A DNA stretch of 64,000 bases from positions 53,500 to 117,499 of IMG/VR virus record IMGVR_UViG_3300042691_036629, one strand, 5' to 3'. Below, in pieces: positions 3,860 through 62,220 of the stretch. How positions within the stretch are numbered: position 1 is the stretch's first letter; each line of letters opens with the position of its first letter. A model generated the notes under the pieces. The model searched no databases, was not told the DNA's origin, and saw only the letters and a list, made by a program, of their open reading frames with translations. Origin of the DNA: a virus (taxonomy: Duplodnaviria; Heunggongvirae; Uroviricota; Caudoviricetes). The position numbers were made by a program, and so were the translations under genes.

Positions 3860-4132
3860 ATGAATAAAGCAGAATTAGTAGAAGCAATTGCTAACGAAAC
3901 TGGATTGAGTAAATCTAAATCTGGTGAAGTTGTTAACACTATCGTGAAAACAATTTCTGAGTCTTTAGCAAAAGGTGAGAAAGTTTCTTTAACTGGTTTC
4001 GGTACTTGGTCAACAAACACAAGACCTGAAAGAAAAGGAAGAAATCCTAAAACTGGTGAAGAAATTACTATCGCTAGTAAAACAGTTGCTAAGTTTAAAC
4101 CAGGTAATGAGTTAACTAAAAGTGTTAACTAA
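3860..4132 (+). CDS. hup: HU/IHF-family DNA-binding protein
   Basis: 90 aa. MNKAELVEAIA...GFGTWSTNTRPERKGRNPKTGEEI...KFKPG is a classic HU signature. Confidence 0.85.
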   Translation: MNKAELVEAIANETGLSKSKSGEVVNTIVKTISESLAKGEKVSLTGFGTWSTNTRPERKGRNPKTGEEITIASKTVAKFKPGNELTKSVN

Positions 4133-23350: not shown

Positions 23351-24931
23351 TTAAACTAATTCAGGTTGTTCTTTAGAAACAAGATCCTCTAACTTCCCAC
23401 GTATGATGGTCAAAGTCGTTTCGTTATAGAACTTACCATCTTTGAAGATAACTTTCAGCTCATTATCTTCCGAGTTAACATCATCCCAAGTACATTTATC
23501 AATTAATGTAAACTCACCATCAACTTTAACTACTTTTAGTAATCCAGTTGCTGATTTTTTAGTACCATCATCAGTGATAGGGTCTTTAAAGATGTTGATA
23601 CCTTCAACATCACCATCAACTTCAATTTCGATGTAGGTTGCTTTTTGAGCCATACCATGTGTATCGCGTGTTACCATCTGAAGTGAATAGGATCCCACAC
23701 CGAGAACGATGTTTGTTGTTGCAAATCCTTTAGCTGATAATCTTTCATAAATACTCTCAGCTCTCTTATAGTTAATAGAGTCACCATAGATAGCACCAAT
23801 GTGTGAGTCTAATTTTTTATATCCGGTTGATGTTTCAGTACCACCAAAGATATCCCATAATAACTCGATAACACCTTTATATTGAGGTTGTTTGTATCTT
23901 TCATTATAAGAAGACATATCTGGAGTTATGCTACCACAAATAATATCTACTGGATCACCAGAGTCAGGACGGATAACAAGTTTGCCATCTCTTGCTAAAA
24001 TTTCATCTTTTAATATTTGACAGTACTCCGTAATAACTCTCCATAAATCCCAAGTATCAGATACTAATGACAATATTCCAGTTGGAAAAGTTCTTAATAA
24101 ATACCTAAATGTCTCAACTTCAAAGTTACCAACCTTATCCCAAGAACCATCTTTAGTCTTAATGAAAAATCCAGTCAATGAACACATAATAGCATGTTCA
24201 GATGCGATAACAGAGTTGATACAAACATCTTTTTCATCATAATACATTCTAGCAGCTGGTATAACAGGTAGTGTATCTGAACCTCTCGAACAAGTAGCAA
24301 ATCCTAAACCACTATTAACAATAGCTGATTTACCACCCATACCTCTCATTGAGAAATCATGATTTTGATAGTCAACAAACCACAAACTCTCCGGATCTGT
24401 TTTTGTGATCCACTTTGTTGATAACTCTCTTAATGCGAATGATAGCGTCGCTGAAGTTGGTGCTTGCCAAGATTCAGCAGAATTAATAGTTTCTAAGTAA
24501 TTAACTATCCAGTCAAAAACTTGACCATTTAAAGGTTTAGTATTAACGATAGTCGATAATGGTATTTTATACGGAATTCTCTCACCTTCAGTGATTGCTC
24601 TAAACTCAATCGGAAGATATCCCAATTTATGTAGTTCTTTGAAGTGAGTAACATCAAAAGGATCACTCAGCATTAACATATCTGTTAAATCCTTCCCAAA
24701 TTGATCGATTTCTTCAATTGGTCTTTGAAAAAAGTTAACATCCCAATCTTGTTTCATTTTTCTCACCATCATTTGTTGACCAAACGAAACAATTTTACCA
24801 TTATTTGGACAATTGCTATATTTACCACTCCTTGGTGTAAAATTTGATTGCATCAAAACACTACCCACTGGTAGCATTGGTTTGTGTCCTGTTTTATACA
24901 CATCGGTATAATAAATTTCTAAAAAGTTCAT
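23351..24931 (-). CDS. nicotinamide phosphoribosyltransferase (Nampt/NadV-like; possibly Namat-type)
   Basis: 526 aa. Conserved LVIRPDSGDP active-site block of the Nampt family. Confidence 0.75.
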   Translation of the reverse strand: MNFLEIYYTDVYKTGHKPMLPVGSVLMQSNFTPRSGKYSNCPNNGKIVSFGQQMMVRKMKQDWDVNFFQRPIEEIDQFGKDLTDMLMLSDPFDVTHFKELHKLGYLPIEFRAITEGERIPYKIPLSTIVNTKPLNGQVFDWIVNYLETINSAESWQAPTSATLSFALRELSTKWITKTDPESLWFVDYQNHDFSMRGMGGKSAIVNSGLGFATCSRGSDTLPVIPAARMYYDEKDVCINSVIASEHAIMCSLTGFFIKTKDGSWDKVGNFEVETFRYLLRTFPTGILSLVSDTWDLWRVITEYCQILKDEILARDGKLVIRPDSGDPVDIICGSITPDMSSYNERYKQPQYKGVIELLWDIFGGTETSTGYKKLDSHIGAIYGDSINYKRAESIYERLSAKGFATTNIVLGVGSYSLQMVTRDTHGMAQKATYIEIEVDGDVEGINIFKDPITDDGTKKSATGLLKVVKVDGEFTLIDKCTWDDVNSEDNELKVIFKDGKFYNETTLTIIRGKLEDLVSKEQPELV

Positions 24932-24966: not shown

Positions 24967-25950
24967 TTATTCCAAAACATTTTTGTTGAAAATTTCAGTA
25001 CTCCATTTTTTATAAACTCTACTATCTATATTATCATTTAATATTTTACTCTCCATGATATATGATTCATATAAAGACATTTCCTTTTCAAATAAAATCT
25101 CAACATCTTTTATAAAACCTTTAGATTTACTCTTCAATGACTTTATTCTACTTTCAACCGAAACTGTTGTTATTCCTATTTTATAATAATCACCATTATT
25201 TATTCTCAAATAATATAATTTAGATTTTTTATCCTTTAATTCTGGTTTATCTTCAAATAATTTCTCAGTGTAACCACCAACTAAAATATTATTAAAAACC
25301 ATATTCTTAATTTTACACTCAAAACAATATTGACCGCTTTGGTGTTTTTGAACACTCTTAACAAATAGCCCATGATCCGGACAAATTATATCTATTTTCG
25401 ACCTCTTGTTAATATAAGTATCTCTATTATATTCAGGATAAATATATTTATCATTATAAATATTTGATAATTTTTCTATAACATCATCATAGGTTTGTGT
25501 TTTATTGAGTACTCTATTATCATTAGCACATAATTTACACCCATAGGTGTTATTACTTAATAAATGTATATTCGGTTTTGTATAAAAATCACCATGTTCT
25601 GAACAAGTTATTTTTATATAATCACCAACAAACCCATTGTAGTTTGATAAATCGTATTTGAATTTATCACCAAACTTCTCATAACATCTACCCAAGAACT
25701 CATCTTTTGAAATGATATTTGGACCCTTTACATAATCTCTTTTTATTTTCTTTTTTTCAATTTCCCAACATAATTTACATCCATATTTTGAACGTAAATG
25801 CTTATCAGGTGTTTGAAAAAAATCTTTATGTACTGGGCATATGATTATAGATTTAGTTTTAGCATTCACATAATTAAACTTACTATAATCAAATTTATTA
25901 CCAAATTTAACTATCGATTTTTTTATAAATTCTTCTAACATAAGTATCAC
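24967..25950 (-). CDS. Zn-finger repeat protein with C-terminal GIY-YIG-like/T5orf172-like domain (putative homing endonuclease)
   Basis: Three CPxHGxF...GCKLC-type units, then YYLRINNGDYYKIGITT. Confidence 0.45.
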   Translation of the reverse strand: MILMLEEFIKKSIVKFGNKFDYSKFNYVNAKTKSIIICPVHKDFFQTPDKHLRSKYGCKLCWEIEKKKIKRDYVKGPNIISKDEFLGRCYEKFGDKFKYDLSNYNGFVGDYIKITCSEHGDFYTKPNIHLLSNNTYGCKLCANDNRVLNKTQTYDDVIEKLSNIYNDKYIYPEYNRDTYINKRSKIDIICPDHGLFVKSVQKHQSGQYCFECKIKNMVFNNILVGGYTEKLFEDKPELKDKKSKLYYLRINNGDYYKIGITTVSVESRIKSLKSKSKGFIKDVEILFEKEMSLYESYIMESKILNDNIDSRVYKKWSTEIFNKNVLE

Positions 25951-47956: not shown

Positions 47957-48029
47957 GGTCAGAAGGGACAGGATTCGAACCTTAATCTCTCTCTTAATGA
48001 GAGGCTCTTTCCAGTTGAGCTACCCACCT
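47957..48029 (-). tRNA. tRNA-like gene, anticodon loop AUUAAGA (possibly tRNA-Leu UAA), weak T-stem
   Basis: GGATTCGAACC on the plus strand, so the T-loop is read on minus. Acceptor stem AGGUGGG/CCCUUCU pairs 6 of 7. D-arm GCUC..GAGC. Anticodon stem CUCUC/GAGAG. Confidence 0.5.
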
Positions 48030-53445: not shown

Positions 53446-53679
53446 TTAAAAAATTTCAAGGAATTTTTCAAAATCATTATCCGGCATTTCATCAAGTAGT
53501 TCGGATAATGTAATTGAATGTGCTTTGGTTTTAGAACAACTCATAGGTACTAATGTTGCAAATTCAACTATATCAGATTCAACATCGATGAAGTTTACCA
53601 TTTGGCAATCTTCAGTATAGAAACCAAGAGTTCCACAAAAATCGGGAAATTGAGATTTGAATATTTCGGACTTTGTCAT
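53446..53679 (-). CDS. hypothetical protein
   Basis: 77-aa ORF. Confidence 0.4.
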   Translation of the reverse strand: MTKSEIFKSQFPDFCGTLGFYTEDCQMVNFIDVESDIVEFATLVPMSCSKTKAHSITLSELLDEMPDNDFEKFLEIF

Positions 53680-57827: not shown

Positions 57828-58040
57828 TTAATTTTCTCCAAGTAACTCACTAAGTTTTTTATCACGAACTTCAGCTTTATTTTTCACCATTCTTTCCACT
57901 TCCACTCTCAATTCAAATGGCTCTAATATAGCAATTAATCCACCACTATTATAAATTTCAATAGAAGCAAAATTTTCAGGTATGTACTTAATCTTACACC
58001 CAGGATTGAGCTTCTCATATTCTTTAATTAACTTTTTCAT
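57828..58040 (-). CDS. hypothetical small protein, tail VRDKKLSELLGEN
   Basis: 70-aa ORF. Confidence 0.4.
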   Translation of the reverse strand: MKKLIKEYEKLNPGCKIKYIPENFASIEIYNSGGLIAILEPFELRVEVERMVKNKAEVRDKKLSELLGEN

Positions 58041-60501: not shown

Positions 60502-60981
60502 TCATAACTCTAAGTTATTTAGTATTTCTATTGCCTTATCCGTACAGATTCTTGTCAAACCATAACCAATATCAACACAATCTTCGTGATCTTTATTACC
60601 AGATGTTTTTACGAAATAAGGTAGTTGGTGTTCTTCCATATCTGTATCATCGTCTAAGATTAAATAACTCGTAATATCTTTGTTCTCTTTAAGATAAGCG
60701 TCTATTTCTTTTCCTCTACATAAAGTTGTGCCATAATGTCTCATAAAGTTTGGAGTTATACCAATAACCTCACCTGGTAAACCTCTTTTAATCCACATTT
60801 CTTTCATTATTTCTAACCCACTTAAACGCCAAGTACTACTTATAACAATCTTAGCACCAGTTTCATCAATCAATCGTTTTAGATTGTCTACTAAGTGTGG
60901 ATGAAATAGTGATCCATATTCATCTCTACCTTCGTAACAAAGGTTAAGAACGCCATCTATGTCTAAAAATATTACTTTCAT
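60502..60981 (-). CDS. HAD-superfamily phosphatase
   Basis: Motif I FLDIDGVLN and motif II ISSTWR. Confidence 0.55.
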   Translation of the reverse strand: MKVIFLDIDGVLNLCYEGRDEYGSLFHPHLVDNLKRLIDETGAKIVISSTWRLSGLEIMKEMWIKRGLPGEVIGITPNFMRHYGTTLCRGKEIDAYLKENKDITSYLILDDDTDMEEHQLPYFVKTSGNKDHEDCVDIGYGLTRICTDKAIEILNNLEL

Positions 60982-61051: not shown

Positions 61052-61369
61052 TTATTTTTTTAATAATTCACTTATCTTCTTATCTCTTAAATATGTCTTA
61101 TATTCGTTCATACTTATTCGATGTATCTCTTCATAGAATATTGTCTTCTCCTCAGAGAAAAATGGTTCACTTGAAATCGTTTTACGACGGATTGATATAA
61201 AATCATCATCGATTGTATTGTTTGAATCTATTGTAAATATTCCAATAGATTCATCATCAAAATCCTCCCCTGTAATCTCTGACAATATTTCTATATCGTA
61301 TTCACCGGAATAATCATTTTTTTCATTCACCAAATAAAATAATTCGGTGACCTTTTTAATAGATCTCAT
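61052..61369 (-). CDS. hypothetical protein, tail LRDKKISELLKK (start trimmed)
   Basis: The track ORF (to 61489) runs across the tRNA-like gene. An internal ATG at 61369 gives MRSIKKVTELFY. Confidence 0.4.
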   Translation of the reverse strand: MRSIKKVTELFYLVNEKNDYSGEYDIEILSEITGEDFDDESIGIFTIDSNNTIDDDFISIRRKTISSEPFFSEEKTIFYEEIHRISMNEYKTYLRDKKISELLKK

Positions 61370-61371
61370 AG

Positions 61372-61537
61372 AAGTCAGAACAGGACTCGAACCTGTACAC
61401 ACTCGTTCCCGTTTATAGGGCCGCCTTGTCGATTGTACTTCTCGTGCGTCTACCAAATTAACATTGTCCCCGTAGTGGATTCTAACCACATTATTTTTAC
61501 AACTAGAACGGGGATGTTAATATTCCGCCACCTGACT
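61372..61537 (-). tRNA. class-II-like tRNA-like gene with about 65-nt structured insertion in the D-loop
   Basis: Acceptor stem AGUCAGG/UCUGACU is perfect. T-arm ACAGG-UUCGAGU-CCUGU. D-arm GCGGAAU[insert]UUGGUAGACGC. The insert (about 61457-61521) is flanked by the 8-bp inverted repeat ATTAACAT/ATGTTAAT plus CCCCGT/ACGGGG. Anticodon not resolved. Confidence 0.5.
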
Positions 61538-61828: not shown

Positions 61829-61918
61829 TAGTCAGAAAAGGATTCGAACCTATATAAGCAAAATTTTCAGAATCAGTATCTGAGTCATCTAGCCGTCCTA
61901 CCATTAGACGATCTGACT
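61829..61918 (-). tRNA. tRNA-like gene, anticodon loop UACUGAU (CUG, Gln-like), non-canonical D region
   Basis: Acceptor stem AGUCAGA/UCUGACU is perfect. GGTTCGAATCC T-loop. Anticodon stem UCAGA/UCUGA is perfect. 90 nt long. Confidence 0.5.
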
Positions 61919-61924
61919 ATTTAG

Positions 61925-61999
61925 TGGACAGATTGAGATTTGAACTCACGTAACACCTGATCAAGGTCAACCCAGTTGTATTAAGTTACATTTCCGCCC
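61925..61999 (-). tRNA. tRNA-like gene, weak anticodon stem (loop UUGAUCA, GAU, Ile-like?)
   Basis: Acceptor stem GGGCGGA/UCUGUCC with two G-U pairs. D-stem UGUA/UACA. T-loop GAGUUCAAAUCUC. Confidence 0.4.
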
Positions 62000-62073: not shown

Positions 62074-62167
62074 TAGAACCTCGTAGTCAGGACAGGACTC
62101 GAACCTGTATGAGAACCTTTCGATTTTACCTACATGGATTTACCTCTAATAACGTCTACCAATTCCG
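62074..62167 (-). tRNA. class-II (Leu-like) tRNA, anticodon unresolved
   Basis: Acceptor stem AGUCAGG/CCUGACU is perfect. D-arm GCGGAAUUGGUAGACGU. T-arm ACAGG-UUCGAGU-CCUGU. Variable arm AAUC-GAAA-GGUU. Same 5' half as the insertion-bearing gene. Confidence 0.6.
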
Positions 62168-62220
62168 CCACCTGACTAAAACAAATATAGTAATATTTTT
62201 ACAATAATCACCAAAATCTT

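Follow-up and report, generated by a model that had tools for sequence, protein, structure and literature searches.

A tRNA-framed phage RNA gene with a conserved structured module in its D-loop and an exchangeable middle

The tRNA-like gene considered here, gene A, lies in a stretch of 64,000 nucleotides (nt) of a Caudoviricetes virus (IMG/VR record IMGVR_UViG_3300042691_036629, positions 53,500 to 117,499), and this whole stretch is called the window below. Gene A occupies 61372..61537 on the minus strand. It combines a constant frame resembling that of tRNA-Leu with a 65-nt structured insert in the D-loop, called the module, and a 49-nt middle, called the cargo, that stands where the anticodon arm is expected. 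With a probability of roughly one half, gene A is a non-decoding, tRNA-scaffolded non-coding RNA in which the frame would act as a natural scaffold and the module would be retained as an accessory domain. An earlier note on this DNA had described a tRNA-like gene with a 65-nt structured D-loop insertion at these positions, and this description is confirmed. What the earlier note missed is that gene A and its uninterrupted neighbor, gene B, belong to a large family with a constant Leu-type frame and hypervariable cargo, and that the insert is an independent module.

Gene A (61537..61372) is 166 nt long, and the layout given here is a reading of its sequence. From 5' to 3', it consists of AGUCAGG-UG-GCGG-AAU, the 65-nt insert, UUGGUAGACGC, the 49-nt middle, ACAGG-UUCGAGU-CCUGU, UCUGACU, and a final U. 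The 5' part of the frame (61522..61537) comprises the 5' strand of the acceptor stem (AGUCAGG), U8 and G9, the 5' strand of the D-stem (GCGG), and the D-loop nucleotides AAU. It is followed by the module (61457..61521), which was delimited by folding, covariation, RNAalifold, and a covariance model, and by the remainder of the D-loop, UUGGUAGA, with the 3' strand of the D-stem, CGC (61446..61456). Annotated phage tRNA-Leu genes have this same D-arm. The cargo (61397..61445) replaces the anticodon arm and the variable region and contains no canonical anticodon arm; it is predicted to be weakly structured (folding z = +0.7), with a hairpin of 3 base pairs (bp) whose loop is UAUAAAC. The 3' part of the frame (61372..61396) carries the T-arm ACAGG-UUCGAGU-CCUGU, the 3' strand of the acceptor stem (UCUGACU), and U as the discriminator. 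The acceptor strands AGUCAGG and UCUGACU form 7 bp, one of them G-U, and the T-stem of 5 bp with its 7-nt T-loop is that of a canonical tRNA. An identical copy of the gene is found on the metagenome contig L291 (JACCDY010739594.1). The insert had been quoted exactly in the earlier note, and the proposal made there that the GC-rich 5' part of the open reading frame (ORF) 61052..61489 is an artefact of the RNA gene is reasonable: the GTG start at 61489 falls within gene A, and the ATG at 61369 lies beyond it. The likely true extent of this downstream ORF is 61055..61369 on the minus strand (105 aa), starting at that ATG, 2 nt past the 3' end of the RNA. No Pfam match was obtained for it. Gene B (62084..62177, minus strand) has the same frame without the module and a different cargo of 46 nt (folding z = +1.5). 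Its shared 5' half and identical T-arm had been recognized before; its coordinates had been given as 62074-62167, a 10-nt shift from the actual 62177..62084.

Genes A and B are not decoding tRNAs, because neither has an anticodon arm. At positions 27-43 of both genes, no 5-bp stem with a 7-nt loop carrying U33 is present. Run with its defaults on gene A, on gene A minus the insert, and on gene B, ARAGORN made no call, so the comparison with and without the insert that had been suggested gave the same answer for both forms. When relaxed and allowed to use introns, the program returned conflicting calls, a tRNA-Thr with an 86-nt intron and a tRNA-Arg with a 14-nt intron. The tRNA model of Rfam, RF00005 (threshold 29 bits), did not match gene A even at E <= 10. 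Gene B reached 35.2 bits, needing 27 nt for the 17-nt anticodon arm plus a 13-nt insertion. Covariance-model support for a tRNA thus extends to gene B, with large insertions, and not to gene A. Among known RNA families, including tmRNA, YrlA-like RNAs, and other tRNA mimics, the Rfam search returned only RF00005 at the gene positions, and even with the cutoff at E <= 0.5, neither cargo nor module matched any Rfam family, whether in the window or across 20 related loci.

The same holds for the wider family. In 86 distinct members, pairing at the canonical position of the anticodon arm was at chance level. Anticodon-like hairpins anywhere in the cargo numbered eight against 3.5 +/- 1.7 expected, several of the eight being parsing artefacts, which is no clear enrichment, and no loop motif or k-mer was shared across cargos. 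The idea of a permuted or processed tRNA is abandoned for the lack of an anticodon arm in either copy. Introns were also considered. Group I introns have about 200 nt or more, with the core helices P1-P9 and a G-binding site; the insert has 65 nt, and no Rfam intron matched it at E <= 10. A tRNA with an endonuclease-spliced intron was rejected as well. There is no bulge-helix-bulge; a single 3-nt bulge, YAA, separates the two 7-bp helices of the insert on the 3' strand, and the 5' strand has none. Removing the insert does not leave a normal tRNA, as the 101-nt product still lacks an anticodon arm. On both kinds of intron, the earlier note had reached the same conclusion. No splicing endonuclease or ligase domain was seen among the 25 Pfam families listed, of 41 found in the 103 ORFs of the window.

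The module by itself is a well-folded element. Its minimum free energy is -18.1 kcal/mol (z = -2.9), a stability that 3 of 200 shuffles also reach. The fold proposed in the earlier note, with an 8-bp and a 6-bp closing stem and an internal hairpin GUGG-UUAGAAU-CCAC, is reproduced; comparatively, the closing stem resolves into 7 + 7 bp with a CAA bulge. On the minus strand, the outer stem (61521-61515 / 61463-61457) and the inner stem (61514-61508 / 61473-61467) are supported by covariation and RNAalifold, and the T-loop-like hairpin (61489-61475) is supported by RNAalifold. The linker occupies 61507-61490, and the CAA bulge occupies 61466-61464. Across copies, the outer stem has 6-9 bp, with changes on both sides in five of its seven pairs, and the bulge is a 3-nt YAA on the 3' strand. 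The inner stem has 7 bp in the form N-CCCCGU/ACGGGG-N', and its first pair (12:59) is A:U, U:A, or C:G. The linker is invariant as UC-YAG-NN-GUR-AAAAY-AAU and contains GUAAAAAUAAU; the Y of its YAG covaries with the R of its GUR (pair 21:28; UA in 16, CG in 5). In the hairpin GUGG-UUAGAAU-CCAC, the loop is T-loop-like and invariant. RNAalifold independently gives the same three helices. With a 7-bp stem leading directly to a T-arm-like hairpin, the module resembles the "top half" of a tRNA.

The core of the module, GUGGUUAGAAUCCACUACGGGG, is present in 13 viral and 41 metagenome contigs; freshwater lakes are the source of most of them, and 36 distinct contexts were recognized. This recurrence, together with the covariation of the closing stem, is far beyond chance. 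The module occurs once per genome. In the window, its covariance model gave one match (98.5 bits), and no second copy was found by the model or by a pattern search allowing three mismatches; the insert, for which the earlier note had suggested such a search as a test for a mobile hairpin, is a single copy in 64 kb. The model gave no match in 1.2 Mb of loci that bear only the scaffold, and its matches were confined to loci fetched for the exact core. A search seeded with the linker returned near-identical cores only. In most contexts, the module sits at the same site, between GGCGGAAU and UUGGUAGACGC, that is, between D-loop nucleotides 16 and 17 and upstream of G18-G19. The frames that bear it differ wholly in cargo and represent both acceptor variants described below, and the same cargo types are found with and without it (L257 and L056, L258 and L010, L279 and L101, and L270 and L105, respectively). 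The module also stands alone. In dense tRNA arrays of L121 (3921-3990), L255/L289, and L295/L298, it takes up the space of one tRNA between tRNA-Ile and tRNA-Trp, with a gap of 2 nt on either side, and these stand-alone copies keep the outer stem; the copies of L263 and L264 lie within other long helices. Other D-loop hairpins, both unrelated to the module, occur at the module site in L118 (3737-3917; 56 nt) and L029 (484-642; 34 nt), which indicates that the site is permissive. The 56-nt insert of L118 is a closed multi-helix element (z = -2.7). Judged by these comparisons, the module is an autonomous, accessory, and conserved RNA domain.

The family was collected by searching IMG/VR with the exact first 16 nt of the gene. 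The constant frame AGUCAGGUGGCGGAAU(U)GGUAGACGC … (U)ACAGGUUCGAAUCCUGUCCUGACUA is present in at least 120 uncultured viral contigs, where it encloses unrelated middles of about 20 to more than 110 nt, with up to five copies per contig, each with a different middle. Family genes sit among true tRNA genes that score 55-72 bits and whose acceptor stems are all different, and some members are labelled tRNA-Pro, tRNA-Ile, or "tRNA-?" by ARAGORN. The usual discriminator is A73, which is kept in gene B; gene A has U. The D-arm of the frame is that of annotated phage tRNA-Leu genes, with 87-93% identity over positions 4-34. Among 50,697 records of deposited phages, the whole frame is absent, and just the D-arm of tRNA-Leu genes matched. 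In a scan of 596 Gb of prokaryotic genomes, the 16-mer was too short a query and its hits were mostly due to chance; real copies of the frame are found on a few contigs of metagenome-assembled genomes binned as Sediminibacterium, Flavobacterium, Chitinophagia, and others.

Selection acts on the frame as an RNA structure. For covariation, 26 distinct frames were used that had been fetched via the module and are therefore unbiased for the acceptor sequence. Eight of the 15 pairs vary on both sides. In the acceptor stem, pair 3:70 alternates between UA and CG and pair 4:69 between CG and AU (AGUCAGG/CCUGACU versus RGCAAGG/CCUUGCU), and four of the five T-stem pairs change in a compensatory manner. 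Frame cells are paired in 99.7% of cases versus 30-44% when the partner is slid by 1-3 columns, where the selection of the 3' half by best pairing inflates the percentage paired and not the compensatory changes. Additionally, TAnnTTTG, the -7 promoter element of Bacteroidota, lies at most 20 nt upstream of 20 of the 183 distinct family genes versus 1.3 expected from shuffles, which is an enrichment of about 15-fold. The peak is at -12, where the motif ends 4 nt before the mature 5' end; gene B is included, and its promoter-like element, assigned from this enrichment, is at 62189-62182 on the minus strand. The presence of the motif argues for a transcribed gene. If so, transcription would start at the mature 5' end, and some of the RNAs would then need no RNase P cut. 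No description of the family was found in a text-only search of the open-access literature, which could have missed an existing one; the family of modular tRNA-framed phage RNAs is apparently undescribed.

The cargo is also under selection and is not filler, because a covarying 8-bp stem, about 95% identity within unalignable flanks, and a mean folding z of -0.8 are found. The stem belongs to the one cargo family of six members, which has three compensatory pairs and a conserved interior. Four cargo types occur in pairs of contigs in which frame and cargo are approximately 95% identical and the flanking DNA cannot be aligned, and the cargos are on average slightly more structured than their shuffles. 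In L274 and L284, the left flank, the frame 5' half, and the module are near-identical, and the two diverge from the cargo onward, so that a recombination breakpoint lies within the gene. The conserved halves of the frame have the look of joints at which mosaic phage genomes recombine. The frame 5' half and module of gene A (window 61446-61537) are 100% identical in these same two contigs, whose flanks are unrelated to those of the window. Among module-bearing genes, the cargo of L130, L259, and L292 nests a piece of a tRNA, with a tRNA-Met-like anticodon arm (loop CUCAUAA) that continues with a second T-arm, AAAGG-UUCAAUU-CCUUU, and a short closing helix. A search with blastn-short for cargos acting as antisense or spacer sequences, run against all loci, matched just other scaffold genes or gave chance matches.

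In the explanation that is favored here, a bacterial-type tRNA-Leu supplies the constant frame, with its acceptor stem, D-arm, and T-arm, and an exchangeable cargo of 20-110 nt takes the place of the anticodon arm. The frame would provide an L-shaped, nuclease-resistant body that is made and trimmed like its tRNA neighbors or that starts at its own promoter. The cargo would be the working part, and the module would be a second, independent payload, an ultra-conserved three-way junction that protrudes between D-loop nucleotides 16 and 17, a position that tolerates additional nucleotides. With the module placed upstream, G18-G19 would stay free for the elbow. The module would most likely be kept in the mature RNA and bind a conserved partner, either a protein or an RNA. 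We infer that the RNA is transcribed and processed in this way, with the module retained and both cargo and module engaged in binding. The phages of the family, which are uncultured and mostly from fresh water, probably infect Bacteroidota.

Several points weigh against this explanation. The cargos of genes A and B are predicted to be unstructured (z = +0.7 and +1.5), and no homologues of them were found in the fetched loci, except in L291, which is identical to the window. The antisense complementarity of the cargos within the window is not above that of shuffles. No binding partner or target was found. When 3,204 ORFs from 180 loci and part of the window, 181 sources in all, were clustered all against all, no protein family was consistently linked to the RNA and none was present in more than 20 loci. 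Some protein families are confined to module-bearing loci, but these seem to reflect shared lineage or spurious ORFs that overlap the RNA gene. That the module is retained and that RNase P/Z process the RNA is proposed by analogy. Finally, the near-invariant acceptor strand AGUCAGG and the Leu-type D-arm exceed what a pure stability handle would need. This invariance hints at sequence-specific recognition, for example, by leucyl-tRNA synthetase (LeuRS) or another tRNA-binding factor, which the scaffold explanation does not cover.

Other explanations assign different roles to the same parts. The module could be a separate small-RNA gene inside the D-loop, cut out by RNase P/Z or RNase III to yield a free RNA of about 70 nt and a frame in two base-paired pieces. 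It does occur free-standing in tRNA arrays, tRNA-sized and 2 nt from its neighbors; it is optional for a given cargo type; and its 7-bp stem with T-arm resembles the minihelix that is an established RNase P substrate. Nevertheless, the free-standing copies keep the covarying outer stem, so the functional unit includes this stem and is not trimmed to the minihelix. There is no 3' CCA, the conserved YAA bulge not being one, and a stem of 14 bp is short for RNase III, which leaves excision unlikely. A rather improbable view, which is partly compatible with the scaffold explanation, is that the RNAs are decoys or sponges in a phage-host tRNA conflict, in which bodies that lack an anticodon and may be charged by LeuRS would, without interfering with decoding, sequester host toxins or enzymes that recognize the acceptor, elbow, or D-arm. 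In sequence, the acceptor and Leu-type D-arm are indeed very strongly conserved, with A73 as the usual discriminator, and the genes lie within tRNA clusters. An "RNA repair" phosphatase of the HAD_SAK_2 type is encoded two genes downstream of gene A, and ORFs resembling P-loop kinases and metallophosphoesterases were noted by eye from the sequence in some related loci. However, a decoy would not need a cargo, yet cargo types are conserved and covarying; the HAD gene is near the RNA in just 7 of 180 loci; no toxin was identified; and in gene A, the discriminator is U, and the module interrupts a D-loop region that is known to be read by LeuRS.

The frames might also serve as processing punctuation, with RNase P/Z cuts setting the ends of neighboring mRNAs around a middle that is largely filler. 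In favor of this, 2 nt separate gene A from the ATG at 61369, gene C (described below) ends about 10 nt before the next ORF, and the middles are hypervariable. We give this possibility little credence, since cargo and module are far better conserved than the flanking genes, many copies lie among tRNAs and not ahead of ORFs, and some carry a promoter-like element of their own at the mature 5' end. It is very improbable that gene A is a true tRNA-Leu(UAA) in which protein-spliced introns interrupt both the D-loop and the stretch ahead of the anticodon stem, and in which the loop UAUAAAC on a CCC/GGG stem is the anticodon loop. The frame is of the Leu type and the 7-nt loop does contain a UAA triplet; in L005, this loop even stands at the canonical position, and the loop UUCAAAC of L012 and L094 would give CAA, also Leu; relaxed ARAGORN with introns returns calls. 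Against this, the stem has just 3 bp, position 33 is A and not U, no bulge-helix-bulge is found at the borders of the insert, the relaxed calls disagree with each other (Thr, Arg), and no anticodon arm is above chance over the family. The host is probably bacterial, and protein-based tRNA splicing is not known in bacteria; moreover, the module also exists outside any tRNA. The miniature hairpin element suggested in the earlier note, taken here to be mobile DNA of the hairpin or miniature inverted-repeat kind that inserted into a tRNA-like gene, is hardly credible. The insert is closed by an inverted repeat, it shows presence/absence polymorphism between orthologous RNAs, and at least four kinds of context are known. 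Its "inverted repeat", however, varies by compensatory changes around an invariant interior, a pattern that marks an RNA helix. Each genome has one copy, with only a single copy in 64 kb and none in the scaffold-only loci; the flanks (AAU…UUGG) carry no target-site duplication; and the insertion point is always the same D-loop nucleotide.

The scaffold explanation can be stated more broadly, in a form that also takes up the invariance of the frame. The RNAs may constitute a modular phage class of non-coding RNA that is built on a Leu-derived chassis with a sequence-specific acceptor and D-arm, to which interchangeable cargos and a D-loop plug-in are added and whose parts are reassorted between unrelated phages. 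Such RNAs could be charged by LeuRS, which does not read the anticodon, or bound by another factor, and a role in tRNA conflict is possible. This broader view is tentative, at slightly less than an even chance.

Gene A does not stand alone in the window. Genes A, B, and C and a candidate gene D are clustered, and the sole tRNA called by ARAGORN lies 13 kb away. Gene C (61829..61918, minus strand) has a Gln-like D-arm and an elongated central arm in its predicted fold, and the Rfam tRNA model matches it with 40.3 bits, with 32 nt replacing 13. Its acceptor stem, AGUCAGA/UCUGACU, is of the shared type, its D-arm is of the Gln/Glu type, and the central arm, which has an internal loop, extends to about 11 bp. 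At the tip, a 5-bp stem with the loop UACUGAU resembles the anticodon arm of tRNA-Gln(CUG), but position 33 is A. Gene C may represent a second type of frame within this phenomenon. Its exact 5'-terminal 24-mer had no match in the viral contigs of IMG/VR. A 15-nt piece of its cargo, CUGAAAAUUUUGCUU (61856-61870), recurs in the sense orientation at 57965-57979, within an ORF of 70 aa (57828-58040, minus strand); this is probably chance, as about 1 in 300 shuffles gives a match of that length. Candidate gene D lies between B and C (61925..61999, minus strand). It is proposed from its fold only, which has an acceptor-like 7-bp stem (GGGCGGA/UCUGUCC), a T-arm-like hairpin (GAG-UUCAAAU-CUC), and one long arm, without a D-arm. 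The ARAGORN call is a "tRNA-Leu(UAA)" of 70 nt and type I at 47960-48029 on the minus strand. It lacks the long variable arm, has a mismatched acceptor stem, and barely passes the Rfam threshold of 29 with 30.3 bits, all of which is odd for a leucine tRNA.

The window has 28% G+C and is phage-like, encoding NAMPT, homing endonucleases, an integrase, and HU. With blastn, it has no nucleotide match among the 50,697 deposited phage records, T4 included. A sorting domain of type IX secretion (T9SS), a marker of Bacteroidota, was found in the Pfam survey of its 103 ORFs, and from this domain and the TAnnTTTG promoters, the host is inferred to be a bacterium of the Bacteroidota. The HAD_SAK_2 protein ("HAD domain in Swiss Army Knife RNA repair proteins", E = 1.7e-27) is encoded at 60502-60981 on the minus strand, two genes downstream of gene A; of 180 loci, just 7 have a homologue close to the RNA genes. 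Host-like functions form an unusual set, among them the translation initiation factor IF3, a formyltransferase, microbial PARG, NUDIX, NAMPT (23351-24931), a ClpP-like protease, HU (3860-4129), the integrase, and the T9SS-sorted protein. Also encoded are two intein-containing ORFs and endonucleases of the LAGLIDADG, HNH (24967-25950), and GIY-YIG/NUMOD types.

Of the options raised in the earlier note, a small stable RNA comparable to the species 1/2 RNAs of phage T4 (rnaC and rnaD) fits best, and these are the closest natural analogue. They are small stable RNAs within a phage tRNA cluster, like the family described here. In rnaC, a canonical T-arm, CCGGGUUCGAAUCCCGG, and an acceptor-like closing helix are joined to long foreign hairpins that replace the tRNA arms (fold z = -4.6). 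There is no sequence similarity to rnaC or rnaD, and only the generic T-arm is common. Unlike the present family, rnaC has no Leu-type D-arm, and T4 has one copy of each RNA, without the reuse of a frame for many cargos and without a D-loop module. The T4 RNAs come from a cultured coliphage, whereas the family was not found in the deposited phage records.

Two further systems work as is proposed here but are not relatives. In the tRNA scaffold of Ponchon and Dardel, the anticodon arm is reportedly replaced by an arbitrary RNA, the acceptor, D-, and T-arms are kept, and the chimera is processed and stabilized like a tRNA. This is exactly the architecture seen in gene A, but it is a laboratory design, whereas here, it is natural and a second site, the D-loop, is used. 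Murine gammaherpesvirus 68 uses a tRNA-like unit as a handle for the expression and processing of small RNAs, not for decoding, in its tRNA-miRNA-encoded RNAs (TMERs). The handle principle is shared; the TMERs differ in that they belong to a eukaryotic virus, depend on RNA polymerase III and tRNase Z, and carry their cargo as pre-miRNA hairpins at the 3' end, not inside the cloverleaf. The D-loop introns of archaeal and red-alga nuclear tRNAs have a bulge-helix-bulge or a relaxed variant of it and leave a normal tRNA after excision by an endonuclease. They are likewise short structured D-loop insertions, but neither the bulge-helix-bulge nor the normal product is seen here, and the host is probably bacterial. 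The t-elements of plant mitochondria are tRNA-like and non-decoding and are recognized by tRNA-processing enzymes (PMC1920247). They are degenerate, linked to mRNAs, and without conserved cargo, whereas in the present family, the RNA itself is the conserved unit.

The tRNA clusters of phages are usually read as supplies of tRNAs for codon usage or against host defence. In a large uncultured group of phages, these clusters also hold many tRNA-shaped RNAs that are unable to decode, and such tRNA-framed RNAs are easily mis-annotated as tRNAs. If the frame is a chassis, nature has arrived at the "tRNA scaffold" trick of RNA engineering, and the dozens of conserved cargos together with the 65-nt module would then be a ready collection of functional RNAs, such as aptamers, decoys, or regulators. 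The family may also offer a comparative handle on the 50-year-old puzzle of the species 1/2 RNAs of T4.

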